IMG/VR virus record: IMGVR_UViG_3300000059_000035
Coordinates: 1 to 11,838 of that record
Direction: 5' to 3' (one strand)
DNA: 11,838 nt
DNA from: a virus
Lineage: Duplodnaviria > Heunggongvirae > Uroviricota > Caudoviricetes
Below the pieces are notes generated by a model that worked only from the letters and a program-made list of their open reading frames with translations, made no database searches and was not told where the DNA came from. How positions within the stretch are numbered: position 1 is the first letter of the stretch; each line of letters starts with the position of its first letter. The position numbers were made by a program, and so were the translations under genes. Below, piece by piece: positions 2 to 11,838 of the stretch.

Positions 2-3000
2 CTGAAAGTCGTCGATGGCATTCTGGTATCTCCGGACGATTACGAAGGTAAGGACGGGGTATTTACCGGCTATCAGCTACGAACCGTAAACGGCAAAAAC
101 GGGAATGAGTTCAAGAAGGCCAACAATAAAGACGGCTTCCTGAACCAGTTAGAAAACTACCTGAACGGTGTTAAACCGCGTGGGCAGAACGCTAACGAGT
201 ACCTGGATAAAATTGCTCAACTGGAAGTTAGTTTTAACGACTGGTTACGCACCCACCCGCAGGCGGATCAGATAGCCCGCGAGTATAACGACGCATTCAA
301 TGGCTTCATTCCGTTCACGCACTCTAACGCACCGCTTGGCCTGGAAGGGATTAGTGGAAAGCGCATTCCTCTGACTTATCAGAATGAAGAAGTTCGGCGC
401 TTGTCAGAAGATGGGCGCGGCATCATGGGATTTGGTACCGGGCTGGGTAAAACCACGACCGCGCTTGCGCTTGAGGCGTATAACTTCGAAACAGGTCGCA
501 CTAAACGCACGTGTATTGTTGTTCCGAAGGCGGTTTATCAGAACTGGTATCACGAGGCACAGAGCTTCTACAGTGCTGATGCCTTCGCAAATATGATGTT
601 TATCGGTCTGGATGAAGTTCGTGATGAAGACGGCAATATTCTGACCGCGCCGGTGCTTGATGAAAATGGCGAACCCCGCCTCGACAGTAACGGGCAGCCT
701 CTTACCAGAAATGTTGTGAAAGAGTCCGCCAGCGCCGTTATCGTTCAGCGCATGAACATGATCCCGTCGTCAAATTGGCGAACGGTCATCATGACAAAAG
801 AACAATTCGCGTCTATCCCGCTACGAGAAAAAACCATCGAGGAGAACTCACAGCAAGCTGTCTTTAATGCTGTGGAAATGGGGCGTCTTGACCTGGCGTC
901 TGGTAAACACCGTGATGCGCAGAAGAAGAACAAGATTAAGGATCAGGCCGCGGATACCGGTACAACGAAGAAGCAGAATATCCCGTACTTTGAGGATATG
1001 AACTTCGATAGCGTGATTGCCGACGAGGGGCATAACTACCGCAACTCCTTTAATGCCGGGCGTGAAGCGGGACAACTGGCATATTTGCCTAACCCGGCAG
1101 TATCCAAGATGGCCCGCGACATGGCTGTAAAAGCTGCGTACATGATGAAACGCAACAACGGGCGTGGTGTAGTCATGCTGACGGCAACACCGCTGGTGAA
1201 CAGTCCGATTGATGCCTTCAACATGCTGTCTACTGTCATTCCGCAGGAAGAGTGGATGCGCATGGGCATCATTACGCCTGATGATTTCGTTCGTGTGTTT
1301 GGTAAAACAGCCACAGTTCAGGTCCAGAAAATTTCCGGGGAAGTGGAAGAGAAGCAGGGGCTGGTTGGCTTCCAGAACCTTGATGGCCTGCGTGGTATTT
1401 TCCATCGCTGGACTACTCTGAAGACTGCTGCGGACGTCGGGGCGACGGTTAAAATCCCTGATATTGTCGAGAATACCTTGCAGATCCCGATGACAGGGGA
1501 GCAGGAGGCTGCTTATGAAGAGCTTCGTAAGCGTGCACAGGAGTTAAGTAGTAAAGATGCGCTGACGGTTGATGAAAACGGGCATATCACAAACGAAAAA
1601 CCGGATGATTTCATCTTCTCCATCATCCGCGACATGGATAAGGTTGCTATAGATCCGGATCTGTATGCCAGTGCGATTACATTCCAGTTCCCCGTTGAGC
1701 TTGCAGACAAGGTAAAAGCTATTGCTGATGCCCTGCCAAAAGTAGCTGGCGGTAAAGTGGCAGATGATGCAGACGAGGCCGAAGAAGACGGCGCTGGTGG
1801 GCTGGTTAGTACGCGCACCAGTAAGGTAGTGAAGACCACCTTTAGTGAACATCCGGCGCATGTTGAAATACGTGCCAGCATTGAACTGGAAGCTGAAATA
1901 CTGAAGGCCATTGCTGCCGCCGGGATTGATCTGCAGCAGGTATCACACCCCATCCCGCCGAAGTATGCCGCGCTGATCGAAAACCTTCGTGAAGGTCTGA
2001 AGAACGGTAAACAAATTGTCTTCATTGATGAAAAAGCCCAGCACCAGAAGCTGCGCCGTATTATCGCCAGTGCACTGCAAATGCCGGAGCAGGAGATAGG
2101 CATTATCAATGCGACGACCGTTAGCCAGGCTGGCGGCATCAAGCTGAAGAAGGTGAATAAGCCGACTGAACCTACTCCGAATAAAAACGGTGAATACAAA
2201 GAAGGGGCATGGGAAACCTACTACAGCAAACTTGCCCAATATGAGGATTATCTCTCAGCTAAAAATGATGCTGGCCTTGAGGGTATGGAAGGCATTGCCG
2301 CCGACTATAACGAAGGGCGCACGCGCATCATTATCTGTAACAAGAAGGCTGAAGTAGGTATTAACCTGCATATCGGGACAACCGATATCCACCACCTGAC
2401 ACTACCCTGGACACCAGCCAGTATCGACCAACGAAATGGGCGCGGTGCGCGCGTAGGTTCACCGCAAGAGAAGGTCAATGTTCACTACTATTGTGGCAAA
2501 GGCACATTCGACGACTTCCGTCTGGATACGCTGAAACGTAAGAAAGACTGGATCAAGATGGTGATGACCTCCGATATGTCAGAGATCGCCAATGGTGATG
2601 CGGATGATGCTGATGAACGCGCCATTATGCTGGCGGCAAACCCGGAAGAACGCCGCGCAATCATGGCTCGCCAGGCGCAAGAGCGTGAAGAACGTCTGAA
2701 ACTGAAAGCACAGCGCGAGGCCAACAATGCTCTCGATATCTACCTAAAAGCGGCAAACGCCGCCGGAAAAGATATCGGCATGATGGAGACAGAACTGAAA
2801 AGCGCGATGGAGCAGATAGAGTATTACCAGCGCAATCTTGACGACCTGATAAAAGCGGGCACGAACAGGAATGGGCAAAAATACGCGCTTGAGCAGTTGA
2901 GTAGCTACAGAAAACGTGCGCGGGTGCTGCGGTTTGCGATCACCAGGGCAAAAGACGCGGATACCATAATGAAACGCTCTCGTGGTGATGTGGAGCGCGC

Positions 3001-4735
3001 TATTAAGTCTGGTGTGCTGGATATCAGTATCGATGTTATTCAGAACCCACAGGAATATATGCGCACTGACAAGAATATCCTGTTGCATAAAGGTAGTTAT
3101 TACCGTGCAGTCATTGATGATCGCGAAACAACAGCGATTGTCCGGGTGGAAAAAATTGACGGTGAAAAAGCACAGTACATCTGCCGTATCGCCTGGCTGG
3201 ATAGAGCAAGTCGTTACGCTCGATCACCGGGGTCAATCGTTACATTGCCGTTTGACTCTGTGATTGAAGCGGTAACTTTTGAAGAGGGGGTAGCTGAATC
3301 GCGCGCAACGGCTGCGCGTGGTGTTCAGTGCCACCAGCTATCAACAATACTTACTCGCGATCAGTTCTATGATGCTATTCGCAATGGGGTAATGAATGTT
3401 ATTGCTGGTAAACCTGGTAATGCATGGGGCGGTGGGTCAGCTATTAAATACTGGGCATATCGCACAGATGATGGTCAGATCGCGCTGTCATCGGCCTATG
3501 ATGGCGTGATAGGCCAAAAAATCGGGCGAGCATCGGATATAGCACCTGAACGATGGATATATCCAGATGGCAACGATGAGGCGCTGAAGCGTGAAGTGGC
3601 AAAAATACAAGCCAGTGATAACCCGCTGAATATCGTGGACGGAGAGGGATTCCTCCAGGCATTGTATGGGTATGATTACATCCAGGGAATGCAGGCATGG
3701 GGCGCACAGGCAACGATGGATGATGTTGCCAAGGAGTTCGAAAACTGGATGGCTGGGCGTGGTCTGTCAGGTCGTTCGCTTAATAAAGTCACTTCTGAAG
3801 ATATTCTTAGCCTGTTCCGCAAACCGTCCGGAGAAGGTCTGGAATCATTCTGGAGGACCGTGCTGGCATACCGTTTATTCCAGGGCAGGATGAAAGCCTT
3901 TAGCAATATCGATGATATTGAACGGATGTTTAATCAGGTCAAGATAGCGAAAATTAAGACGAAGATCGAAAAAACACGTTCTGCGCTGGTGGCCTGGCGC
4001 GATGCATTGTTTGAGCAATATAAATCACTCAGTGATGCAGATGGATGGGCGGCACTGGAACAGTTGGCGAATAATGGGGTAGATGGAGCGAAACTCGCCA
4101 TTGTCCAGGCTGATAACCCCCTGGAATCACCGGCAGCACAGTGGATTAAGGTGGGGGCTGTCATCAATGCATTTGATGAAAAACACATTAGTAAGGACGA
4201 TTTTGCTGATGCTGTTTCTGTTAATCGCCTGGTAGAAATGGCTACCCGCCGCGCCCGTGAGTTGAAAGACGGTGACTATGTGAATGAGTTGCCGGATGCG
4301 CTCAAATCAGCAACGTGGCAAGACTATGTATCGCTGAAAAACGGCGGGGCCACCGAATCAGAGATCGCGGAAAGGCTTGAACAGGCTGAAAGCAAAAGAG
4401 AAGAGCAGGCGGCAGTGGCAGAAGCCAGAGCTGATGAAGCGGCGAATGATGACTATATCATTGTGGTTAATGATAAGCCGATTCGCGCTAAGGCGCGTGT
4501 TCGCGGGCGCTGGTGGAGCGTCAGCGAGGACGTTGGCGCGGTTTATCTCATTGCCGACCAACCAGGTTCCTCGACAATACGGAACGCCAAAGACGCGATT
4601 AAGAAGATTGGCGGGCGTTTCTGGAATTTTGAAGTGAATCCGGTCGCGGATGTGGACTTTGACCGTCCGGCGTGGATGGTATCTACGCGTTACTCGGTAG
4701 ATGAACTGCGTAAAATAATCGCCGATGCGGCTTAA
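2..4735 (+). CDS. Giant multidomain protein, 5'-truncated by the window edge (1578 codons visible); SF2 DEGH-box helicase core followed by a ~750-aa C-terminal region of unknown function
   Basis: Frame 2 is open from position 2 through the TTG at 401 where the ORF track begins (I walked every codon; no stop), ending at TAA 4733-4735. Walker A GFGTGLGKTT at 428-460, DEGH box at 1022-1033, LTATP (motif III-like) at 1178-1192, motif VI QRNGRGARVG at 2429-2458. Acidic tract DDADEAEEDG and a charged coiled-coil-like segment (ERRAIMARQAQEREERLKLK). No convincing start or RBS in-window, so the N-terminus lies upstream. Confidence 0.85.
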   Translation: MKVVDGILVSPDDYEGKDGVFTGYQLRTVNGKNGNEFKKANNKDGFLNQLENYLNGVKPRGQNANEYLDKIAQLEVSFNDWLRTHPQADQIAREYNDAFNGFIPFTHSNAPLGLEGISGKRIPLTYQNEEVRRLSEDGRGIMGFGTGLGKTTTALALEAYNFETGRTKRTCIVVPKAVYQNWYHEAQSFYSADAFANMMFIGLDEVRDEDGNILTAPVLDENGEPRLDSNGQPLTRNVVKESASAVIVQRMNMIPSSNWRTVIMTKEQFASIPLREKTIEENSQQAVFNAVEMGRLDLASGKHRDAQKKNKIKDQAADTGTTKKQNIPYFEDMNFDSVIADEGHNYRNSFNAGREAGQLAYLPNPAVSKMARDMAVKAAYMMKRNNGRGVVMLTATPLVNSPIDAFNMLSTVIPQEEWMRMGIITPDDFVRVFGKTATVQVQKISGEVEEKQGLVGFQNLDGLRGIFHRWTTLKTAADVGATVKIPDIVENTLQIPMTGEQEAAYEELRKRAQELSSKDALTVDENGHITNEKPDDFIFSIIRDMDKVAIDPDLYASAITFQFPVELADKVKAIADALPKVAGGKVADDADEAEEDGAGGLVSTRTSKVVKTTFSEHPAHVEIRASIELEAEILKAIAAAGIDLQQVSHPIPPKYAALIENLREGLKNGKQIVFIDEKAQHQKLRRIIASALQMPEQEIGIINATTVSQAGGIKLKKVNKPTEPTPNKNGEYKEGAWETYYSKLAQYEDYLSAKNDAGLEGMEGIAADYNEGRTRIIICNKKAEVGINLHIGTTDIHHLTLPWTPASIDQRNGRGARVGSPQEKVNVHYYCGKGTFDDFRLDTLKRKKDWIKMVMTSDMSEIANGDADDADERAIMLAANPEERRAIMARQAQEREERLKLKAQREANNALDIYLKAANAAGKDIGMMETELKSAMEQIEYYQRNLDDLIKAGTNRNGQKYALEQLSSYRKRARVLRFAITRAKDADTIMKRSRGDVERAIKSGVLDISIDVIQNPQEYMRTDKNILLHKGSYYRAVIDDRETTAIVRVEKIDGEKAQYICRIAWLDRASRYARSPGSIVTLPFDSVIEAVTFEEGVAESRATAARGVQCHQLSTILTRDQFYDAIRNGVMNVIAGKPGNAWGGGSAIKYWAYRTDDGQIALSSAYDGVIGQKIGRASDIAPERWIYPDGNDEALKREVAKIQASDNPLNIVDGEGFLQALYGYDYIQGMQAWGAQATMDDVAKEFENWMAGRGLSGRSLNKVTSEDILSLFRKPSGEGLESFWRTVLAYRLFQGRMKAFSNIDDIERMFNQVKIAKIKTKIEKTRSALVAWRDALFEQYKSLSDADGWAALEQLANNGVDGAKLAIVQADNPLESPAAQWIKVGAVINAFDEKHISKDDFADAVSVNRLVEMATRRARELKDGDYVNELPDALKSATWQDYVSLKNGGATESEIAERLEQAESKREEQAAVAEARADEAANDDYIIVVNDKPIRAKARVRGRWWSVSEDVGAVYLIADQPGSSTIRNAKDAIKKIGGRFWNFEVNPVADVDFDRPAWMVSTRYSVDELRKIIADAA

Positions 4736-4746
4736 CAGATAAGGAG

Positions 4747-4764
4747 CGGCCCCAGCCGGGGCCG
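4747..4764 (+). other. GC-rich hairpin (7-bp stem CGGCCCC/GGGGCCG, 4-nt loop) between an AAGGAG Shine-Dalgarno (4741-4746) and the ATG at 4772
   Basis: Perfect inverted repeat read directly; no U-tract follows, so it is not a canonical intrinsic terminator. Confidence 0.6.
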
Positions 4765-4771
4765 GATTTGA

Positions 4772-5206
4772 ATGACGACATTAATTGACACTGTAAAACC
4801 GACGGAATCCTACCTTGAGGATATTTTGCCGCAGGCGCTCAATGGCAGGAGTGAAGAGGCGTTTCTGGATGCATATCTGGATGGTATGGTGGAAAGGCTG
4901 AAACGAGATCCACAGCTTTATCACCTTTATGGCCCGTGGTGGCCTGCGCTTAAAACGTTATTGCTGGAGCGCGGCGACATATCATTTGGACAAGTTGTAG
5001 ATAGTGATGTGGCAGAGATCTACAAAATGAGTCGCCCGGCGCTTACGGTTTTAGCCGGGCATCTGTATTCAAGCGATCGCCTGGAAAATGACGCGGTATA
5101 CAATCCCGTTCATGCTCTGGAAGTCGCGCCTTATGCTGATGATACAGAGCCATATGTGTACACAAGTTACGACGAGTCGATAGAGAAATATCGAATCATG
5201 GGGTAG
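4772..5206 (+). CDS. Hypothetical acidic protein, 144 aa
   Basis: ATG ORF 36 nt downstream of the giant gene stop; about 25 D/E versus 12 K/R by my count; stop TAG 5204-5206 lies 2 nt before the next ATG. Confidence 0.6.
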   Translation: MTTLIDTVKPTESYLEDILPQALNGRSEEAFLDAYLDGMVERLKRDPQLYHLYGPWWPALKTLLLERGDISFGQVVDSDVAEIYKMSRPALTVLAGHLYSSDRLENDAVYNPVHALEVAPYADDTEPYVYTSYDESIEKYRIMG

Positions 5207-5208
5207 CT

Positions 5209-5469
5209 ATGCGAAAGAATCGTAGGTTTACGATCGACGACTTAAAAGCGTACTCACAAGGGAAGGGATACGCCCTTGAATACCACCGTTATAAGCGGGT
5301 ATTTACCCTGCGGCATATAGAAAACCCTTCGAAATGGGGATGGATTTATTTTCCGCACACTGACGATAAGCTGGTGGGCCTTGTTGATGATTTATCCTAT
5401 GAAGGATGGATGATCGCTATCGACAAGGCGGTTACAGAAATTAACGAACCGGATAAAATAAACCATTAA
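5209..5469 (+). CDS. Hypothetical protein, 86 aa
   Basis: ATG at 5209 is 2 nt after the upstream stop (TAGCTATG), suggesting translational coupling; same strand and context. No recognisable motif. Confidence 0.5.
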   Translation: MRKNRRFTIDDLKAYSQGKGYALEYHRYKRVFTLRHIENPSKWGWIYFPHTDDKLVGLVDDLSYEGWMIAIDKAVTEINEPDKINH

Positions 5470-5473
5470 AAAT

Positions 5474-5513
5474 AACAAGTTGGGTAAATGACATACAATT
5501 TACCCGGCTTGTT
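5474..5513 (+). other. Long hairpin just after the 86-aa gene (16-bp stem with two G-U pairs, 8-nt loop); possible terminator or RNA stabiliser lacking a U-tract
   Basis: AACAAGTTGGGTAAAT (5474-5489) pairs with ATTTACCCGGCTTGTT (5498-5513); core GGGTAAAT/ATTTACCC is a perfect 8-bp inverted repeat. Confidence 0.5.
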
Positions 5514-5592
5514 GACCCGCATCACCATTTACTCTAAAAACAAGTCCGACCTGTTGCATCCGCCTATCTCTTTAGTAGTATTTCCCCCGGTT

Positions 5593-5620
5593 TTGATAAA
5601 ACTAACGCTCTTGTTATTAT
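5593..5620 (+). promoter_or_regulatory. Candidate sigma70-type promoter (-35 TTGATA, 16-bp spacer, -10 TATTAT)
   Basis: TTGATA at 5593-5598 and TATTAT at 5615-5620, about 35 nt upstream of the VRR-NUC ORF start. Confidence 0.4.
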
Positions 5621-5644
5621 CGTGATCATGATTTCAGGAAGTTT

Positions 5645-5654
5645 GTGTTAGAAA
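5645..5654 (+). promoter_or_regulatory. Copy of the recurring GTGTTAGAAA motif, ending 1 nt before the TTG start at 5656
   Basis: Exact 10-mer shared with 7945-7954 and 8095-8104. Confidence 0.4.
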
Positions 5655-5655
5655 T

Positions 5656-6102
5656 TTGATTCGAAGACGCAGGCATCATAGTGCGTATTCTGAAATATCC
5701 CCGCACGCTGCTGCACTAAGAGAGTTAGAAAGAAATCCTGACTTACTAAAAAGGAATTACGAACATTACGAACAGGTTCGCGTTCTGGATTGGCTGTATC
5801 GCAACATGCGATACGTGTATGAGCACACACACTCAACACCGAACGGCGGCCTGAGAGGCAAAAGGACAGCCATTAAGATGGTGGCAGAAGGTCAGAAGAA
5901 GGGCTATCCGGACCTTTCTATTGACCTTGCTCGTGGTGGGTATCACGGAATGCGCATTGAGATGAAGCACGGGAGAAACCGTCTGACTCCCGAACAGCTC
6001 GTCTGGATGACCCGCCTCACGGAAGCAGGCTATTACTGCTTTGAGGCGCGCAGTGCCGATGAAGCCATAAAAGCTATCACGGAATATGTAAATCTTGATT
6101 AA
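5656..6102 (+). CDS. VRR-NUC domain nuclease (PD-(D/E)xK superfamily), 148 aa if the TTG start is used
   Basis: Conserved VRR-NUC-like segments read in the translation: HSTPNGG, GYPDLSI, RIEMKHG (E-x-K), TPEQLVWMTRLTEAGYYCF. Stop TAA 6100-6102. Start is uncertain: the only in-frame start codon before the conserved N-terminal region is TTG at 5656, with weak SD. Confidence 0.7.
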   Translation: MIRRRRHHSAYSEISPHAAALRELERNPDLLKRNYEHYEQVRVLDWLYRNMRYVYEHTHSTPNGGLRGKRTAIKMVAEGQKKGYPDLSIDLARGGYHGMRIEMKHGRNRLTPEQLVWMTRLTEAGYYCFEARSADEAIKAITEYVNLD

Positions 6103-6116
6103 ACGGAGAAATCGTT

Positions 6117-6317
6117 TTGCGTTTACTTAACGTGGCTGAACTTATCCCTGCCGGTGCTAACGTTGTTGCTCGTCGCTGCTCATGGCCTCATTCTTTCTGT
6201 ATAGAGCTTAAAAAGATGGATGATGGGGCATTAGAAGCCCGAAACATAGTTACCGGCGACAAGGTATGCATTACCCCGGAAAGCGCGAAAGCCAATGATT
6301 GGGAGTTTGTTCATTGA
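6117..6317 (+). CDS. Hypothetical small protein, 66 aa (TTG start)
   Basis: GGAG at 6104-6107 lies 9 nt upstream of TTG 6117; stop TGA 6315-6317. No motif recognised; short, so uncertain. Confidence 0.35.
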   Translation: MRLLNVAELIPAGANVVARRCSWPHSFCIELKKMDDGALEARNIVTGDKVCITPESAKANDWEFVH

Positions 6318-6625
6318 GCAGAAAACACCACGTAAATCTGACGTTTGCTGATGACGCCGGAAGAACCAGAAGCATAACCATGAAAGTTGCTTCCAGGAAA
6401 GTAACCGCTCCACTTATACGAGAGGCCGTAAGTGAACTTGAGATGAGTGAGAATGCAGCTCTGTTATCGGTAAGCTGGCTGGGGAAAATGACGGATCAGG
6501 AATACTCGGATGGTATACCCCACGGTGAGCGGCAGATAGTAAAGCGCGCGCTTAGAATTTCAGAGGTAGTTGTCGTACTGATAGCTTTGATTTATATGGC
6601 ATACATGCTACTTCAACACGTCTAA
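6314..6625 (+). CDS. Hypothetical small protein with a C-terminal hydrophobic (probable transmembrane) segment; start uncertain (TTG 6314 or ATG 6380)
   Basis: TTG 6314-6316 overlaps the upstream TGA (TTGA) with GGGAG at 6301-6305; alternative ATG at 6380. C-terminus ISEVVVVLIALIYMAYMLLQHV is strongly hydrophobic. Stop TAA 6623-6625. Confidence 0.4.
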   Translation: MSRKHHVNLTFADDAGRTRSITMKVASRKVTAPLIREAVSELEMSENAALLSVSWLGKMTDQEYSDGIPHGERQIVKRALRISEVVVVLIALIYMAYMLLQHV

Positions 6626-6633
6626 ACGGTCAT

Positions 6634-6660
6634 AAACCCGCCAGTTGGCGGGTTTTTTGT
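6634..6660 (+). terminator. Rho-independent terminator
   Basis: Stem CCCGCC (6637-6642) / GGCGGG (6647-6652), loop AGTT, followed by TTTTTT (6653-6658). Confidence 0.8.
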
Positions 6661-6676
6661 TGCCTGAGTCTTTTTA

Positions 6677-6713
6677 TTGAAATTGCATACTAATAAAATA
6701 TGTTAGAAAACTA
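6677..6713 (+). promoter_or_regulatory. Candidate promoter for the 402-aa gene (-35 TTGAAA, 16-bp spacer, -10 TATGTT) overlapping a TGTTAGAAAACTA motif copy
   Basis: TTGAAA 6677-6682, TATGTT 6699-6704; motif GTTAGAAAACTA at 6702-6713; the ATG at 6735 has an AGGGAA-type SD. Confidence 0.5.
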
Positions 6714-6734
6714 ATTTCAAGAAAGGGAACAAAC

Positions 6735-7943
6735 ATGAGTCAGCAAGTAGAATCATCAAGCCTGGAGATCATCTCAACCGCAATTGAAACGCTGCGGACA
6801 CAAATCGCGCTTATACAGAAACGAAATCCGGGCGATGACCTGTCAAAGCGACTGCATGAGAGCGTCATTGCCACTACAGATAACCTGGTGGCGGAAATCA
6901 ACCAGCTCCTTGATGATGGGGCAGTTGATTACAATAAGCTGGTGGATCAGTTTGAGGAATATCAGCAAGCCGTTAATGATGGCTTGATCCGTTTTTCTCA
7001 AGTCACTGGTGTATCAGCGACAGTTGAAAGCCTGGGGGATGCTGTTAATCAATTTGCCGCGAATATGCGTAATGAGATCGGCAATCTGGAGGCGCGTCTT
7101 GAGCAGGCAAATACACTGCGCAAATCTGCTGAAGTCGATTTGAGTCGTTACAAAAAAGACTATCCGCCAAGCCTGACAAAACGACTGGATGTTGCGGAGA
7201 AAGATAACCGCACGCTGAAAAGAGAGCGTCGGGAACTAAAAGAGCGTTTAACCAAGCTAAATCAGCAATGCGTTGAGTATCAAGGCGAACTCGTCACGCT
7301 GCGTAAAAAGTTAGCAGCGGCGCAGAGCATTATTGAAACATTGAAACGAGAGTGCTCAGAGCTTGGTCATGATCTGAATCGCGCCTGTGGCATGGGGCAA
7401 AGGCCAGAGACATTCCCGCTAATGTATGACGGAAGAGAAGCTATTGCCTATATCCATGAGTTTCCGCATGGTCTGGTCGCGGAGACTGGGCAACGTGGCG
7501 AAGCGTTGCTGACGGCAAATTACCATCAGCAAATCAGAACCAGCCGCCTGCTGACGATGGATGTGATCCCGTCAGTATGGGGAACGCCGCTTTACTACCG
7601 AATTCCTGGCTTCGAAACTGACTGGAATACCGACATAGACGAATGTCTGGCAGATAAAATTATGGCGTACCTTGAAACGGATTTTCCACGCTTGCATCGC
7701 CGGATTATGGACTCTAAGGATGCACCGATCGACGAATTGAAAATGCGTCCAGAGACGTTGGAGGCAATCAAGCAGACTGAGTTTGATACAGTGTTCAGTG
7801 TGGCCTGCATTCCAAGCAGCTTTCATGAAAGCATTCCGTTCATGCAGGGCGATCGACGTCAGGAAATAATTGATGCTTGCCGGGTATGGGCGAACGAGTG
7901 GGATAAGAAGAACGGTGGAGTTGAAAATCTTTACGGGAAATAA
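6735..7943 (+). CDS. Hypothetical protein, 402 aa: N-terminal ~220 aa predicted coiled coil, C-terminal ~180 aa globular domain of unknown function
   Basis: ATG with SD; long ORF; heptad-like charged segments (for example RLDVAEKDNRTLKRERRELKERLTKLNQQCVEYQGELVTLRKKLAAAQ); flanked by a terminator upstream and a palindrome downstream. No catalytic motif recognised. Confidence 0.75.
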   Translation: MSQQVESSSLEIISTAIETLRTQIALIQKRNPGDDLSKRLHESVIATTDNLVAEINQLLDDGAVDYNKLVDQFEEYQQAVNDGLIRFSQVTGVSATVESLGDAVNQFAANMRNEIGNLEARLEQANTLRKSAEVDLSRYKKDYPPSLTKRLDVAEKDNRTLKRERRELKERLTKLNQQCVEYQGELVTLRKKLAAAQSIIETLKRECSELGHDLNRACGMGQRPETFPLMYDGREAIAYIHEFPHGLVAETGQRGEALLTANYHQQIRTSRLLTMDVIPSVWGTPLYYRIPGFETDWNTDIDECLADKIMAYLETDFPRLHRRIMDSKDAPIDELKMRPETLEAIKQTEFDTVFSVACIPSSFHESIPFMQGDRRQEIIDACRVWANEWDKKNGGVENLYGK

Positions 7944-7944
7944 T

Positions 7945-7976
7945 GTGTTAGAAAACTAAAATTATCTTTCTAACAT
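7945..7976 (+). promoter_or_regulatory. Palindromic operator-like site: GTGTTAGAAA - 12 bp - TTTCTAACAT
   Basis: Arms 7945-7954 and 7967-7976 are reverse complements at 9 of 10 positions; it sits 2 nt after the stop codon of the 402-aa gene. Confidence 0.5.
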
Positions 7977-8011
7977 GTTGATTATGGGATTAACTTAACA
8001 TAGAATTTTTC

Positions 8012-8081
8012 GTGCTGGTGGGGAGCTTCCCATGTCGCTTGCGGGTTTGATAGTCACTTCATTGTCTTCCCCCACCAGCAC
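8012..8081. repeat. Long-stem inverted repeat (about 13-bp stem with one bulge, 43-nt interior), tRNA-sized (70 nt)
   Basis: GTGCTGGTGGGGA (8012-8024) pairs with TCCCCCACCAGCAC (8068-8081). Confidence 0.45.
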
Positions 8082-8094
8082 CAAACAAACTTAA

Positions 8095-8104
8095 GTGTTA
8101 GAAA
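8095..8104 (+). promoter_or_regulatory. Copy of the GTGTTAGAAA motif
   Basis: Exact 10-mer; AT-rich flanks. Confidence 0.4.
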
Positions 8105-8246
8105 GTAAATTTTAAGGTAAGGGAAAGCTCCGGCACCGTGCAAATACATGCCCGGCAGGTTTAGTGCGTAAAGTGGTTTCAGCGAGAGCATTTTACGGAG
8201 TAAACGACAGTGACTTGAGCCACGGAAGGTCTTTTTAAGGTGTTCA

Positions 8247-8274
8247 TTGATGATGATCTGGCAGTGAGTATGTT
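8247..8274 (+). promoter_or_regulatory. Candidate promoter (-35 TTGATG, 16-bp spacer, -10 TATGTT) upstream of the small ORF at 8338
   Basis: Same -10 hexamer (TATGTT) and spacer length as the 6677-6704 candidate. Confidence 0.35.
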
Positions 8275-8337
8275 AAGTGGGCCAGGCTGCATCGGGTCAT
8301 CATCAGTGCACATCCTCAACGTTAAGGAGGCGCAGAG

Positions 8338-8529
8338 TTGGGTTTTCCTCTTATTTTGCTGACTCTGAGTCTCCTTAACGTTGCGGTAATGCACCTATGC
8401 GGATGTGGCCTTGCATTGTGTTTTGAAAGAATGGGGGTAAGGCCGGGGATATCCCCAGGGGGAGGCACCCCCGCTGCAACGAACAGCCATAGACGGCAGT
8501 CGAGTGATGAAAACGTGAAAAGACTTTAA
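8338..8529 (+). CDS. Small protein (63 aa) with a hydrophobic N-terminal half; candidate membrane peptide
   Basis: Strong SD AAGGAGG at 8324-8330, 7 nt before TTG 8338; N-terminus GFPLILLTLSLLNVAVMHLCGCGLALCF is hydrophobic, C-terminus polar. Non-ATG start and short length keep confidence low. Confidence 0.35.
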   Translation: MGFPLILLTLSLLNVAVMHLCGCGLALCFERMGVRPGISPGGGTPAATNSHRRQSSDENVKRL

Positions 8530-8606
8530 ACCTCGTTACGGCTGGCGTGGCAAACGCGACAACCGGGATAGGACGGTGACGGGCGGAGAGAGAGCCGCTT
8601 CAAGAT

Positions 8607-8673
8607 AAAAGCCGACTATGGATTCCTTTCTGCGGGCCTTTGAAAGTGAATCTTGCTCAGGCAGTCGGCTTTT
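8607..8673. repeat. Long-stem inverted repeat (perfect 11-bp stem, 45-nt interior), tRNA-sized (67 nt)
   Basis: AAAAGCCGACT (8607-8617) pairs with AGTCGGCTTTT (8663-8673). Confidence 0.45.
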
Positions 8674-8803
8674 ATGTTGATACGTAGCGATAACCGCGAC
8701 AGGCGCGGCGGTAAGTATGGCGGGGTTATTCCTTCCCCGTTGAGGACACCGAGTTGCCAGGTTGACCATACGCCTAAGTGGCAATACCGCGAGTGGGATA
8801 TTT

Positions 8804-8828
8804 GCCCACCTTCGGGTGGGTGTTTTTT
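8804..8828 (+). terminator. Rho-independent terminator
   Basis: Stem CCCACC (8805-8810) / GGTGGG (8815-8820), loop TTCG, followed by TGTTTTTT. Confidence 0.8.
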
Positions 8829-9012
8829 CAGTGTTTTCGTCATGGTTAGCGACTTTGCGGCGGTTTAGAACCCGACCATTAAAGTAAATGCAAACGATGA
8901 TCTGATGATGGTAGCGGCCTAAGAAGCCTGACGCCACGGGGTATGAGTCGTCCCCCGTCAAAAAATCGACCGCAGAGTGTCCCCGTCTGTGTATTAGGGA
9001 ACGGGGAGGCAT

Positions 9013-9089
9013 AACAGGCAAGGGCGCTGGTGTGATTAACCAGATGAATGAGAAGGGGCAGGTCTTTCTGGTCAGCGCCCTTACCTGTT
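9013..9089. repeat. Long-stem inverted repeat (17-bp stem with 1 mismatch, 43-nt interior), tRNA-sized (77 nt)
   Basis: AACAGGCAAGGGCGCTG (9013-9029) pairs with CAGCGCCCTTACCTGTT (9073-9089). Confidence 0.45.
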
Positions 9090-9288
9090 GCGTCCTTCCC
9101 GCGTAACAGCCATTGGTTAATGGCTTTCTGGATAATGTCTTGTAACGGGTATATCCCGTCATGCTGAAGGCGCTAATCACGCTGGAAGCCAGGGTTATGC
9201 ATCCCCTGTTACCGAATTGCAGCCAGGGCGCGGTGCGCCGAAAAGCATACGGAGGTGGAAGCCCTCGCCGGAGACGTACCCGGCAAGT

Positions 9289-9365
9289 GATGGTGTAGCT
9301 CAGTAGGATAGAGCAGCAGCCTTCTAAGCTGTCGGTCGGTGGTTCGAATCCACCCACCATCGCCA
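9289..9365 (+). tRNA. tRNA-Arg (anticodon TCT)
   Basis: Cloverleaf read by hand: acceptor GATGGTG/CACCATC, D-arm GCTC-AGTAGGATA-GAGC, anticodon stem GCAGC/GCTGT with loop CTTCTAA, T-arm GGTGG-TTCGAAT-CCACC, discriminator G, encoded CCA. D-arm and anticodon loop resemble E. coli argU as I recall it. Confidence 0.9.
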
Positions 9366-9370
9366 ATTTA

Positions 9371-9457
9371 GGGGAGTTAGTCCGTAGGGGTAGCGGGGTA
9401 GACTGTAAATCTACTGTCATTGCGACTCGGATGGTTCGACTCCATCACTCCCCACCA
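9371..9457 (+). tRNA. tRNA-Tyr (anticodon GTA), type II with long variable arm
   Basis: Acceptor GGGGAGT/ACTCCCC, anticodon stem GTAGA/TCTAC with loop CTGTAAA, long variable arm TGTCATTGCGACTCG (similar to E. coli tyrT as I recall it), T-arm GATGG-TTCGACT-CCATC, encoded CCA. D-arm pairing is imperfect as drawn by hand. Confidence 0.8.
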
Positions 9458-9461
9458 AATT

Positions 9462-9537
9462 GCCGGTTTAGCTCAGTTGGTAGAGCAGTCGCTTTGTAAG
9501 CGAATGGCCAGCGGTTCAAGTCCGTTAACCGGCACCA
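9462..9537 (+). tRNA. tRNA-Thr (anticodon TGT)
   Basis: Acceptor GCCGGTT/AACCGGC, D-arm GCTC-AGTTGGTA-GAGC, anticodon stem GTCGC/GCGAA with loop TTTGTAA, T-arm AGCGG-TTCAAGT-CCGTT, discriminator A, encoded CCA. Confidence 0.9.
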
Positions 9538-9545
9538 ACACAACA

Positions 9546-9619
9546 GGTAAGGGTATTTTGCGACGTCGGAGATCGCCGTGCTTGGCAGAGGGTTCGAATC
9601 CCTACGAAGTACCCTTACC
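9546..9619 (+). other. tRNA-like remnant or tRNA-sized hairpin (74 nt) directly after the tRNA array; not a canonical tRNA
   Basis: Perfect 10-bp terminal stem GGTAAGGGTA (9546-9555) / TACCCTTACC (9610-9619) enclosing a T-arm-like hairpin AGGG-TTCGAAT-CCCT (9589-9603). Nine extra nt lie between the T-stem and the 3' acceptor strand, and no D-arm or anticodon arm can be drawn. Confidence 0.35.
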
Positions 9620-9767
9620 GTTGTGGTGAATGCGCAGGCTGATGCGCGAAAGACATTGCAGCTATTGCGGAAAAGAGCTGTTCGGCGGGGCAATTAAACG
9701 CCCGTGAGAGTCTGAAATAACCGCAAGCCGGAGATCAGCACCGGTCACCACAACAGCCACTGCTTTG

Positions 9768-9813
9768 GCGGTACCAGTTTGTACACTTGCTTCCGGCTGG
9801 TACCGCTCTTTTT
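9768..9813 (+). terminator. Rho-independent terminator (10-bp stem, 19-nt loop, U-tract)
   Basis: GCGGTACCAG (9768-9777) / CTGGTACCGC (9797-9806) followed by TCTTTTT (9807-9813). Confidence 0.7.
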
Positions 9814-9814
9814 A

Positions 9815-9901
9815 CAAAACAGAGAAGAGCATCACCGGACGACGGGCTCATAACCCAATCCATCCGGGCGGCNGNCACCGCAGGTGTTCTTCTCTGTTTT
9901 G
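9815..9901. repeat. Long-stem inverted repeat (16-bp stem with 1 mismatch, ~55-nt interior) in the leader upstream of the yfdP-like gene
   Basis: CAAAACAGAGAAGAGC (9815-9830) pairs with GTTCTTCTCTGTTTTG (9886-9901); interior contains two N bases (9873, 9875). Confidence 0.4.
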
Positions 9902-9950
9902 TGGAGAAACCAACCGACCTTGCAGGGTCGATATGATNAGGAGCAGCAAA

Positions 9951-10313
9951 ATGGCTAGCGAACGCAGTACTGATGTGCAGGCATTTATCGGGGAGCTGGA
10001 CGGCGGCGTATTTGAAACCAAAATCGGCGCAGTTCTCAGTGAAGTCGCTTCCGGTGTGATGAACACGAAAACCAAAGGTAAGGTCTCACTCAACCTGGAA
10101 ATCGAACCATTTGATGAGAACCGTGTGAAAATCAAACACAAACTCTCATATGTTCGCCCGACTAACCGCGGGAAAATTTCCGAAGAAGACACCACCGAAA
10201 CGCCGATGTATGTCAATCGCGGTGGTCGCCTGACTATTCTGCAGGAAGACCAGGGACAATTACTGACTCTTGCCGGTGAACCTGACGGAAAACTCCGCGC
10301 AGCAGGTCATTAA
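9951..10313 (+). CDS. yfdP: YfdP-like phage protein, 120 aa
   Basis: ATG 9951 preceded by AGGAG (9939-9943, next to an N at 9938); stop TAA 10311-10313. The 120-aa length and its position directly upstream of yfdQ/yfdR-like genes match the CPS-53 arrangement as I recall it. The longer ORF in the track (from 9765) crosses a terminator and N bases, so I reject the extension. Confidence 0.7.
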   Translation: MASERSTDVQAFIGELDGGVFETKIGAVLSEVASGVMNTKTKGKVSLNLEIEPFDENRVKIKHKLSYVRPTNRGKISEEDTTETPMYVNRGGRLTILQEDQGQLLTLAGEPDGKLRAAGH

Positions 10314-10378
10314 TATCGTTCTTAATTAACTGATTATTTATCTCATCACTGAATATCTTTATATAGTGAGGACTTATT

Positions 10379-11203
10379 ATGTCTCAGAACTTAGACGCAA
10401 CCGCAATTAATCAAATCCATGCCCTTATTTCTGCTCAGGGTGTTAATGAAATTATCAGTAAGATTGGTGCCGATGCTGTGGCATTGCCTGAGAATTTCCG
10501 CATTCATGATCTGGAAAAATTTAATTTAAATCGCTTCCGTTTCCGTGGTGCGCTTTCCACTGCCAGCATCGATGACTTTACCCGTTATTCTAAAGATCTT
10601 GCAGATGAAGGCACCCGCTGCTTTATCGATGCCGATAATATGCGTGCCGTCAGTGTGCTTAACCTGGGTACTATTGATGAACCAGGTCACGCAGATAACA
10701 CCGCCACTCTCAAACTGAAAAAGACAGCACCGTTCTCTGCNCTGTTGTCTGTTAANGGCGAGCGTAACTCCCAGAANTCACTGGCAGAATGGATTGAAGA
10801 CTGGGCCGACTACCTTGTGGGCTTTGATGCTAATGGTGACGCCATTCAGGCAACCAAAGCGGCGGCGGCTATCCGTAAAATCACAATTGAAGCGAACCAG
10901 ACCGCTGATTTTGAAGATAATGACTTCAGCGGCAAACGCTCCCTGATGGAGTCTGTCGAAGCGAAGACCAAAGACATTATGCCAGTGGCATTTGAATTTA
11001 AATGCATTCCGTTTGAAGGTCTGAAAGAACGTCCGTTTAAATTACGCCTCAGCATTATCACTGGCGATCGTCCGGTACTGGTTCTGCGCATTATTCAGCT
11101 GGAGGCGGTGCAGGAAGAAATGGCTAACGAATTTCGTGATCTGCTTGTTGAGAAATTCAAAGACAGCAAAGTAGAAACCTTTATTGGTACTTTCACCGCC
11201 TGA
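10379..11203 (+). CDS. yfdQ: YfdQ-like protein (DUF2303 family), 274 aa
   Basis: ATG with SD GAGGA at 10368-10372; 274 aa as in E. coli YfdQ; three codons contain N (10741, 10756, 10777). Stop TGA 11201-11203. Confidence 0.75.
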
Positions 11204-11215
11204 TTTCATTACTGC

Positions 11216-11237
11216 AAATGCCCCTGCGGGGGCATTT
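11216..11237 (+). terminator. Terminator-like hairpin (9-bp stem AAATGCCCC/GGGGCATTT, loop TGCG) with weak U-tract
   Basis: Perfect inverted repeat immediately after the yfdQ stop; followed by ATGG rather than a clean T-run, so it may be an attenuator or partial terminator. Confidence 0.5.
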
Positions 11238-11329
11238 ATGGAAACGTAATTACTCAATAATCGCCGGATGGTGAGGGCTTCCTTTTACCAGAATTCAGCG
11301 CGGTGCAGCGCATATACGTGGAGAACAAA

Positions 11330-11838
11330 ATGTCATTTATTAAAACTTTTTCCGGGAAGCATTTTTATTATGACAGGATAAATAAAGACGACATCGATAT
11401 TAACGATATCGCGGTTTCCCTTTCAAATATCTGTCGCTTTGCCGGTCATCTTTCGCACTTCTACAGCGTCGCCCAACATGCGGTTCTTTGCAGCCAGCTG
11501 GTGCCGCAGGAATTTGCTTTTGAAGCGTTAATGCATGATGCAACAGAAGCGTATTGCCAGGACATTCCCGCACCACTGAAACGCCTTCTTCCTGACTATA
11601 AACGGATGGAAGAAAAAATAGACGCCGTAATCCGTGAGAAATACGGGTTACCTCCTGTTATGAGCACGCCAGTGAAATATGCCGATCTCATCATGCTGGC
11701 AACCGAACGCCGCGATCTCGGGCTTGATGATGGCTCTTTCTGGCCTGTACTGGAAGGCATCCCGGCAACAGAGATGTTCAACGTGATTCCACTGGCACCG
11801 GGTCATGCCTACGGGATGTTTATGGAACGTTTTAACGA
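11330..11838 (+). CDS. yfdR: YfdR-like HD-domain phosphohydrolase (5'-deoxynucleotidase family), 3'-truncated by the window end
   Basis: ATG 11330 with GGAG 8 nt upstream; HD-domain signature residues visible (FAGHLSHF ... ALMHDATEAY); ORF still open at position 11838. Confidence 0.8.
   Translation, partial: MSFIKTFSGKHFYYDRINKDDIDINDIAVSLSNICRFAGHLSHFYSVAQHAVLCSQLVPQEFAFEALMHDATEAYCQDIPAPLKRLLPDYKRMEEKIDAVIREKYGLPPVMSTPVKYADLIMLATERRDLGLDDGSFWPVLEGIPATEMFNVIPLAPGHAYGMFMERFN

Follow-up and report, generated by a model that had tools for sequence, protein, structure and literature searches.

A yfdPQR block next to phage-plasmid tRNA genes: a composite contig with a probable assembly join and a tmRNA-like tag element

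The genes yfdP, yfdQ and yfdR are known from the CPS-53 prophage of Escherichia coli K-12, and in one viral contig they stand directly behind a cluster of tRNA genes. How did they come to be there? The contig is IMG/VR record IMGVR_UViG_3300000059_000035 (Caudoviricetes), of which one strand of 11,838 nucleotides was analyzed (hereafter, the window). A preliminary description had taken the yfdPQR block for a nin-like early region displaced at a mosaic junction. Searching 50,697 phage records, 5426 complete E. coli genomes and 72,556 plasmids, we find that the window is a composite of a D6/P1-like phage-plasmid and a lambdoid prophage, and that the join between them was probably made by the assembler. 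The plasmid part also carries a tag element resembling transfer-messenger RNA (tmRNA).

Bases 2-9755 match the D6-like phage-plasmid pEC361_3 (NZ_AP027414.1) at 99.1% in one piece, and the part that aligns to phage D6 (2-9637) matches it at 92%. From 9619 (or 9746) to 11838, the window is 97-99% identical to the lambdoid phage mEp460, to Stx2a and Stx2c phages, to PhiR55_1 and to prophages. No phage, E. coli genome or plasmid record matches both parts, and the best query coverage is 82%. Mismatch maps narrow the transition further: the window agrees fully with mEp460 from 9619 on and with pEC361_3 up to 9755, with the one exception of 9748, a base at which it carries the lambdoid allele. This places the join in 9619-9747, an interval of 129 bases that are identical in both parents and in the same orientation. 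The breakpoint that the preliminary description had hoped to find by BLAST is thus localized by aligning the two parents. Its mosaic junction survives in that two unrelated phage backbones meet in this interval; the upstream half, however, is not lambdoid, and as biology the junction fares less well, since this sequence alone has the join and its lambdoid side looks as if several copies had been merged. The features of the window are as follows.

2..4735, + strand: DarB-like giant SNF2 helicase gene, C-terminal 1578 codons (relatives have 2278 aa), truncated at the window start
4772..5206, + strand: Ulx-like (P1 ulx) gene, 144 aa, annotated in D6 as 'Ulx-like anti-restriction'
5656..6102, + strand: VRR-NUC / PmgM-like gene (Pfam VRR_NUC, 26.2 bits; D6 annotation 'similar to P1 gene pmgM')
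6735..7943, + strand: PmgS-like coiled-coil protein, 402 aa (D6 annotation 'PmgS-like head morphogenesis')
7950..9288, + strand: non-coding structured RNA region, 1.3 kb, without a credible open reading frame (ORF); folding z = -4.1
about 8836-9000, + strand: tmRNA-like tag element, with the tag frame at 8890-8922 (tag peptides, covariation)
8999-9096, + strand: long hairpin inside the non-coding region
9289-9365, + strand: tRNA-Arg(tct) (ARAGORN; Rfam tRNA, 72.1 bits)
9371-9457, + strand: tRNA-Tyr(gta) (ARAGORN; Rfam tRNA, 43.8 bits)
9462-9537, + strand: tRNA-Thr(tgt) (ARAGORN; Rfam tRNA, 69.0 bits)
9534..9632, + strand: tRNA-derived hairpin with a stem of about 20 bp and a T-arm-like GGGTTCGAATCCC cap, the last plasmid-specific element before the join
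9619..9755, + strand: 137-bp module common to D6-like plasmids and mEp460-type lambdoid phages (four-way alignment, mismatch maps)
9756..9950, + strand: lambdoid leader 5' of yfdP, with N bases at 9873, 9875 and 9938; it matches lambdoid phages, not plasmids
9951..10313, + strand: yfdP, 120 aa (PF27127 / phrog_204), 99.2% to K-12 YfdP
10379..11203, + strand: yfdQ, 274 aa (DUF2303 / phrog_210), 98.5% to K-12 YfdQ
11330..11838, + strand: yfdR, HD-domain 5'-deoxynucleotidase-like, 169 of 178 codons, cut by the window end

The three genes on the right are true orthologues of yfdP, yfdQ and yfdR, in ordinary, near-identical copies. BLASTP against CPS-53 of K-12 MG1655 gives 99.2% identity for YfdP over 120/120 aa, 98.5% for YfdQ and 98.8% for YfdR over 169 aa, which confirms both the gene assignments and the positions proposed earlier. 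YfdQ matches the Pfam family DUF2303 (PF10065) over residues 7-272 with 304.8 bits (6.4e-91; cut-off 26.6). YfdP matches phrog_204 at 1.2e-49, and its homologues belong to PF27127, a recent addition to Pfam; in NCBIfam neither YfdP nor YfdQ has a model. YfdR matches phrog_318, 'deoxyribonucleoside 5' monophosphate phosphatase', at 2.9e-106 and PDB entry 2gz4 at 5e-13, with its HD motif within LMHDATEAY, and scores slightly below the cut-off of the generic Pfam YfbR-like model (24.4 vs 25.9 bits). At the DNA level, 9951-11838 is matched at 95-99% in 3012 of the 5426 complete E. coli genomes, where it is annotated yfdP/yfdQ/yfdR, with up to 7 copies in a single genome. CPS-53 (KpLE1) has the block in identical order and spacing, yfdP-yfdQ-yfdR(-yfdS-yfdT), at 98% DNA identity over 9932-11838. 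Homology to CPS-53 begins only at 9932, whereas the window's leader at 9619-9931 fits intact lambdoid phages; yfdS, yfdT and torI of CPS-53 would fall past the window end. The genes and their internal arrangement are therefore nothing new: yfdPQR is among the commonest E. coli prophage modules, and its context has already been described.

The neighbors on the left are equally real, as the preliminary description had them: the tRNAs at 9289-9537, the non-coding region, the VRR-NUC gene and the helicase gene are all present. The helicase frame is open from base 2 (the listed ORF began at 401); Pfam finds SNF2-rel_dom, Helicase_C and ResIII in the ORF, and the D6 homologue is annotated 'similar to P1 gene darB'. 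By the D6 and pEC361_3 annotations, a pmgR-like gene also lies within the plasmid part, between the pmgM-like and pmgS-like genes. The pEC361_3 annotation carries the identical tRNA trio Arg/Tyr/Thr, and at gathering thresholds Rfam reports nothing in the whole window beyond the three tRNAs. In D6 and D6-like plasmids the order is the same throughout: darB-like, ulx-like, pmgM/R/S-like, RNA region, tRNA-Arg/Tyr/Thr and 137-bp module. Beyond the module the D6-like plasmids have more tRNA-like genes, then a Tad2-like gene, lpa and pacA; in the window yfdPQR takes their place. In pEC361_3 the Tad2-like (anti-Thoeris) gene occupies 15051-15626, after the tRNA/RNA locus and before lpa and pacA. Ten alignment gaps and the ORF start at 401 had raised the suspicion of frameshifts or poor quality in the plasmid part, which we rejected: all insertions and deletions relative to close relatives fall in the non-coding RNA/tRNA region, and the plasmid part has no N and no frameshift and is intact up to the join.

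To ask how common the join is, we scanned for a pattern anchored on the left in plasmid-specific and on the right in lambdoid-specific sequence. This pattern is absent from IMG/VR, from GTDB (one genome per species) and from the JGI metagenomes. The lambdoid parental arrangement, sought with a pattern of like design, is present in more than 120 IMG/VR contigs; the exact-pattern scan of IMG/VR for the plasmid parental arrangement gave no match. IMG/VR evidently lacks this plasmid variant, so BLAST against the E. coli genomes and plasmids served as the control for that arrangement. The assembly collection lists the identical 402-aa PmgS protein in 2296 of its blocks. Among the matches listed, 10/10 long PmgS contigs continue to Tad2-like, Lpa and PacA. 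For 750 of the 2296 blocks the longest carrying contig is merely 10-20 kb, which suggests that the plasmid region near PmgS is often broken at neighboring repeats in short-read assemblies. Of the 120 listed loci with the upstream RNA element, not one has any of the three yfd genes, and these loci and the 10 long PmgS contigs together yield no independent example of a tRNA cluster joined to yfdPQR. In complete E. coli genomes the 137-bp module occurs at 716 chromosomal and 237 plasmid places, and recombinant flanks accompany none of either (0/716 and 0/237). The preliminary description had named a common, conserved gene order in a known phage family as the finding that would overturn its proposal. 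The internal yfdPQR order is indeed common, and the tRNA-yfdPQR join is found in no other record of the collections searched.

The window also contains six single N bases, at 9873, 9875, 9938, 10741, 10756 and 10777. All six lie in the last 2.2 kb, in the lambdoid part (P = 4e-5 if uniformly placed). All six also fall on sites that are polymorphic among 123 lambdoid loci, against a background of 21.5% (hypergeometric P = 1e-4, or 1.5e-6 with a 3% minor-allele threshold), and the three within yfdQ (10741, 10756 and 10777) are all third codon positions. The lambdoid part is therefore a consensus of at least two natural alleles, and the plasmid part is not.

What, then, do the two backbones share at the point where they meet? 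The 137-bp module is a hairpin whose closing stem is GTTGTGGTGA...TCACCACAAC; the ends of the module turn up again in other phage families, next to the tag element. The lambdoid DNA 5' of yfdP keeps the same closing stem with alternative cargo: mEp460-type phages have the 137-bp cargo, and PhiR55_1 and Stx2c-type phages have one that is 90% identical to window 8694-8784. With a common closing stem and interchangeable cargo, both backbones share sequence exactly at the join, which makes the spot prone to real and in-silico crossovers alike. The two kinds of element also meet in the same cells. Matches to the module occur in 891 records from 846 genomes, leaving about 45 genomes with more than one such record, and in O111:H2 12A and FDAARGOS_1059 it is present on chromosome and plasmid as separate replicons.

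The module belongs to a tRNA-derived family of long hairpins that are closed by conserved stems, ACAACAGGTAAG.../...CTTACCGTTGTGG and GTTGTGGTGA.../...TCACCACAAC, around interiors that can be exchanged. Its members include 9534-9632, 9619-9755 and 8999-9096 in the window, 3487-3606 in PhiR55_1 (locus L263) and 4940-5140 in mEp460 (locus L002). In P1/D6-like phages these hairpins come after the tRNA cluster, and lambdoid phages have them 5' of yfdP. The hairpin at 9534-9632 has a minimum free energy of -42.1 kcal/mol (z = -4.92; 0/200 shuffles as stable) and a T-loop motif. Small opposite-strand ORFs that overlap the modules, such as mEp460 gp36 and gp37, may be spurious.

The alternative cargo bears on one further account of the window, a natural, unsampled lineage with a tRNA and tag-RNA locus 5' of yfdPQR, of which the lambdoid hairpins would be deletion remnants. 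PhiR55_1 and Stx2c-type phages join their homologue of 8694-8784 directly to the equivalent of 9746, a joint that resembles the window arrangement minus 8785-9745. We nonetheless consider such a lineage very improbable. Two cargos in the same closing stem fit cassette-like replacement equally well, no locus with the tag element and tRNAs carries yfdPQR among the matches listed, and the left 9.7 kb is 99% identical to plasmids with a different continuation.

Taken together, the evidence leads us to conclude that the join is probably an assembly chimera. The sample would have contained a D6-like plasmid together with two or more lambdoid prophages whose yfdPQR genes differed slightly. The yfdPQR copies would have been merged to one consensus, with N left where the alleles differ, and the contig would have walked from the plasmid via the shared repeat into the prophage. 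Taken by themselves, bases 9619-11838 are nothing unusual: leader, yfdP, yfdQ and yfdR from the leftward early (PL) operon of a lambdoid prophage of the SfV/mEp460/Stx type. Chimeric contigs at short inter-replicon repeats are a general phenomenon of short-read assemblies, and the window resembles them in its exact 129-base repeat on two replicons, its one-sided N at polymorphic sites and its unique arrangement. In the window the artefact is deduced from the sequence.

Several points weigh against an assembly origin. Stretches of 129 perfectly identical bases suffice for RecA-dependent recombination, and paired-read assemblers usually resolve repeats of about 130 bp correctly. The shared module is itself a mark of earlier DNA exchange between both phage types at this place. 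The N bases prove only that at least two yfdPQR alleles were in the sample, and a real recombinant together with one resident prophage would give the same N picture. Finally, that 5426 complete genomes lack the join sets a limit on its frequency and is compatible with a rare real event, and its absence from the searched collections has no bearing on the source record itself.

These points lend some weight to a real join, formed when a D6-like phage-plasmid recombined homologously with a resident lambdoid prophage in the 129-base stretch. A single crossover would have produced a cointegrate, and a double crossover a plasmid with the yfdPQR module, its second junction lying beyond the window. 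The parents offer the necessary identity in the same orientation and are co-resident in some closed genomes; the plasmid side is clean and intact right to the join; and the hairpin modules that the lambdoid yfdP-upstream region shares with the end of the P1/D6 locus, with their interchangeable cargo, speak of repeated past exchange. Against it stand the uniformly non-recombinant flanks of the 237 plasmid and 716 chromosomal copies of the module, the lack of any public contig with the join and the confinement of N bases to the lambdoid side, and we hold a real recombinant to be possible, with limited confidence. That the join is real and that the hairpin modules (closing stem CGTTGTGGTGA...TCACCACAACAG) are moreover a recurrent crossover point between phage-plasmids and prophages is a tentative idea that we rate as rather unlikely. 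If true, the modules would have moved the host-replication-interfering yfdPQR onto a P1-like plasmid, or fused both elements. A real join would document that P1-like phage-plasmids and lambdoid prophages exchange genes directly, at a defined hot spot. For practical purposes, a repeat of about 130 bp between a plasmid-borne and a chromosomal prophage can yield a plausible 'mosaic', and one-sided N bases are a warning sign.

Whichever way the join arose, where does the yfdPQR block normally belong? We examined the gene order in mEp460, Stx2a_WGPS2, PhiR55_1 and one intact E. coli prophage. In all four, the replication, cII-like and cro-like genes lie on one strand, and the opposite strand carries cI, a short leader, yfdP, yfdQ, yfdR, a yfdS-like gene, ea22, exonuclease, xis and int. 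The block is thus transcribed away from the replication genes. It is normally part of the PL operon, between cI and xis/int, in agreement with its published placement in the 'early left operon' (PMC12315714). PL operons of the SfV/mEp460/Stx2a_WGPS2/PhiR55_1 type match the window at 98-99% identity up to its last base, over the 137-bp module and the yfdP leader as well, with the match starting at 9607/9619 (mEp460, WGPS2) or 9746 (PhiR55_1, Stx2c phages). The leader at 9756-9950 is matched in mEp460, Stx2a_WGPS2, PhiR55_1 and E. coli prophages and in no plasmid. Leader, yfdP, yfdQ and yfdR share one strand in the window, with the same order and spacing as in the four phages and prophages. Upstream, those phages have a cI-type repressor and two small ORFs, whereas the window has no cI-type repressor/PL region 5' of the block, only phage-plasmid DNA with its tRNAs upstream of 9619. 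We found no sigma-70-like promoter on the + strand of 9500-11838, and yfdPQR would be read within a long early-left transcript, with no promoter of its own.

This synteny contradicts the preliminary description on two counts. Its term 'nin-like' does not apply, because the block sits across cI from the replication genes, and its statement that such blocks follow replication genes in lambdoid prophages fails in all four intact elements. Its picture of a nin-like block, normally found after replication genes and displaced inside a lambdoid mosaic, does have CPS-53 in its favor, where yfdP is 357 bp from the replication-gene remnant yfdO. However, yfdO is on the opposite strand, and the block adjoins it because the repressor and cro genes between the two divergent gene sets are gone. 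As the DNA upstream in the window is that of a P1/D6-like phage-plasmid and not lambdoid, and as intact phages keep the block in the PL operon, we reject this picture as having next to no probability. Placing yfdPQR in the early-left operon, with its recombination, anti-host and host-takeover functions, rather than in the nin region corrects a common picture.

What the block does is known in part from K-12. The HD-domain protein YfdR binds domain I of DnaA (Phe46), competing with DiaA and DnaB, and extra yfdQ and yfdR together with yfdS or yfdT inhibit initiation at oriC, for which yfdP is dispensable; the nucleotide affinity of YfdR is far below that of YfbR (PMC4776307). Judging from these orthologues, yfdPQR in a live phage would serve early interference with host replication and nucleotide metabolism. 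As the preliminary description stated, yfdP and yfdQ have no established function, a point made explicitly in PMC12315714. YfdQ matches PDB entry 9o7m, 'YfdQ Protein' (36 chains), at 1.1e-44. The protein in this entry comes from a Xanthomonas CP2/MET23-P3-type phage, and its 36 chains hint that YfdQ may form a large homo-oligomer; we found no publication for the entry. With AlphaFold models of YfdQ (pLDDT confidence score, 74.7) and YfdP (68.3), Foldseek returned no PDB match at E < 0.001, and 9o7m was not among the hits of the YfdQ model. In the virulent Xanthomonas phage CP2 (locus L127, 2639-3892), a 124-aa YfdP homologue (hhalign probability 99.2%, E = 1.8e-19) lies directly 5' of the YfdQ homologue, and the two head an operon that goes on with DUF1351, Erf, exonuclease, endonuclease and SSB genes. 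By sequence comparison, then, phages very distant from each other have kept YfdP and YfdQ side by side, with genes for recombination and replication nearby, and this conserved adjacency suggests that the two may act as a pair.

The most interesting thing in the window lies to the left of the join and is potentially more important than the yfdPQR junction. The non-coding region 7950-9288 is a patchwork: 8691-9290 is 87% conserved in P1, SJ46 and RCS47, and 8833-9008 is conserved in many unrelated phages. A core at about 8836-9000 is conserved and unannotated in P1, D6, ECBP1 (Schitoviridae), CS01 (Drexlerviridae), Kevin (Ackermannviridae), Salmonella phage Akira and many other enterobacterial phages, and usually lies close to tRNA genes. 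In our set of loci it is found at about 1650-1830 in P1 (L142) and about 13710-13880 in D6 (L001), and also in L138-L141 and L143-L262.

The core contains the frame GCA AAC GAT GAT CTG ATG ATG GTA GCG GCC TAA, which encodes ANDDLMMVAA followed by a stop codon. The tag of E. coli tmRNA is ANDENYALAA. As read from the sequence, the frame lacks a start codon, and eight codons before it there is an in-frame stop. At least 120 IMG/VR contigs, about 42 to 160 kb long, share a motif just 5' of the tag, and among the matches listed a ten-codon frame stands at a fixed distance from this motif in 119/120 contigs. The tag peptides of these matches fall into 18 variants, all of the form AN[D/E/S]...[A/V]A followed by a stop, and their synonymous codons vary; for the last alanine, all four codons are seen by eye among the aligned sequences. 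In Akira and ECBP1, promoter-like sequence is seemingly just 50-110 nucleotides 5' of the tag, again by eye.

Downstream of the frame, the RNA is predicted to fold into a defined structure. The tag stop codon appears to lie inside a small hairpin, a 2-pair helix without covariation support, and after it come two pseudoknots that covariation does support. Across 35 diverse sequences, 89.8% of alignment cells pair, compared to 73.1% in shuffles (0/500 reach the observed value) and 34-59% when the partners are slid out of register. Changes on both sides of a pair number 101 cells vs 30.7 expected (0/500), and 14/22 pairs have a compensatory change. Because MAFFT shifts some stems by one column in the window's subtype and we kept the majority register, these figures understate the pairing.

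Is this element a tmRNA? ARAGORN finds no tmRNA in the window or in 38 loci. At permissive E-values the one relevant additional Rfam match is to tmRNA_permuted, with sub-threshold scores of 24-33 bits (gathering threshold 47) that cover the tag only. We found no tRNA-like domain of the element with ARAGORN, with T-loop motifs or by eye, and by eye no acceptor with a G3:U70 pair. Two candidates for such a domain, the T-arm hairpin at 9534-9632 and an ACCA-ended one at about 8016-8090, were rejected, as both are without G3:U70. Because no tRNA-like domain or G3:U70 was found, Rfam stays sub-threshold and ARAGORN is silent, we do not file the element as a tmRNA. We describe it as a tag template that resembles tmRNA and carries pseudoknots but stands outside the tmRNA family.

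The hairpin at about 8016-8090 has, by eye, a stem of about 13 bp with ...CCACCAGC-A-CCA at the end of its 3' strand, an acceptor-stem-like helix followed by ACCA; it has U3-A70 in place of G3:U70 and no clear T-arm. Separately, the D6 record NC_050154.1 annotates tRNA-Asn and tRNA-Thr at 14167-14317 on the strand opposite to the flanking genes. The homologous tRNAs in the window and pEC361_3, and the T-loop motifs in D6 itself, are on the gene strand, and the annotated orientation is probably a strand error.

A 2014 census of tmRNA in RefSeq viruses placed ssrA solely in mycobacteriophages, and further examples are Bacillus phage G and mycobacteriophage DS6A (PMC4131195). Our search of the literature on tag peptides, tmRNA-like phage RNAs and tmRNA in these phage families found no report of the element. 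Its presence in so many phages raises the question of whether they are re-programming, or feeding on, ribosome rescue and proteolytic tagging.

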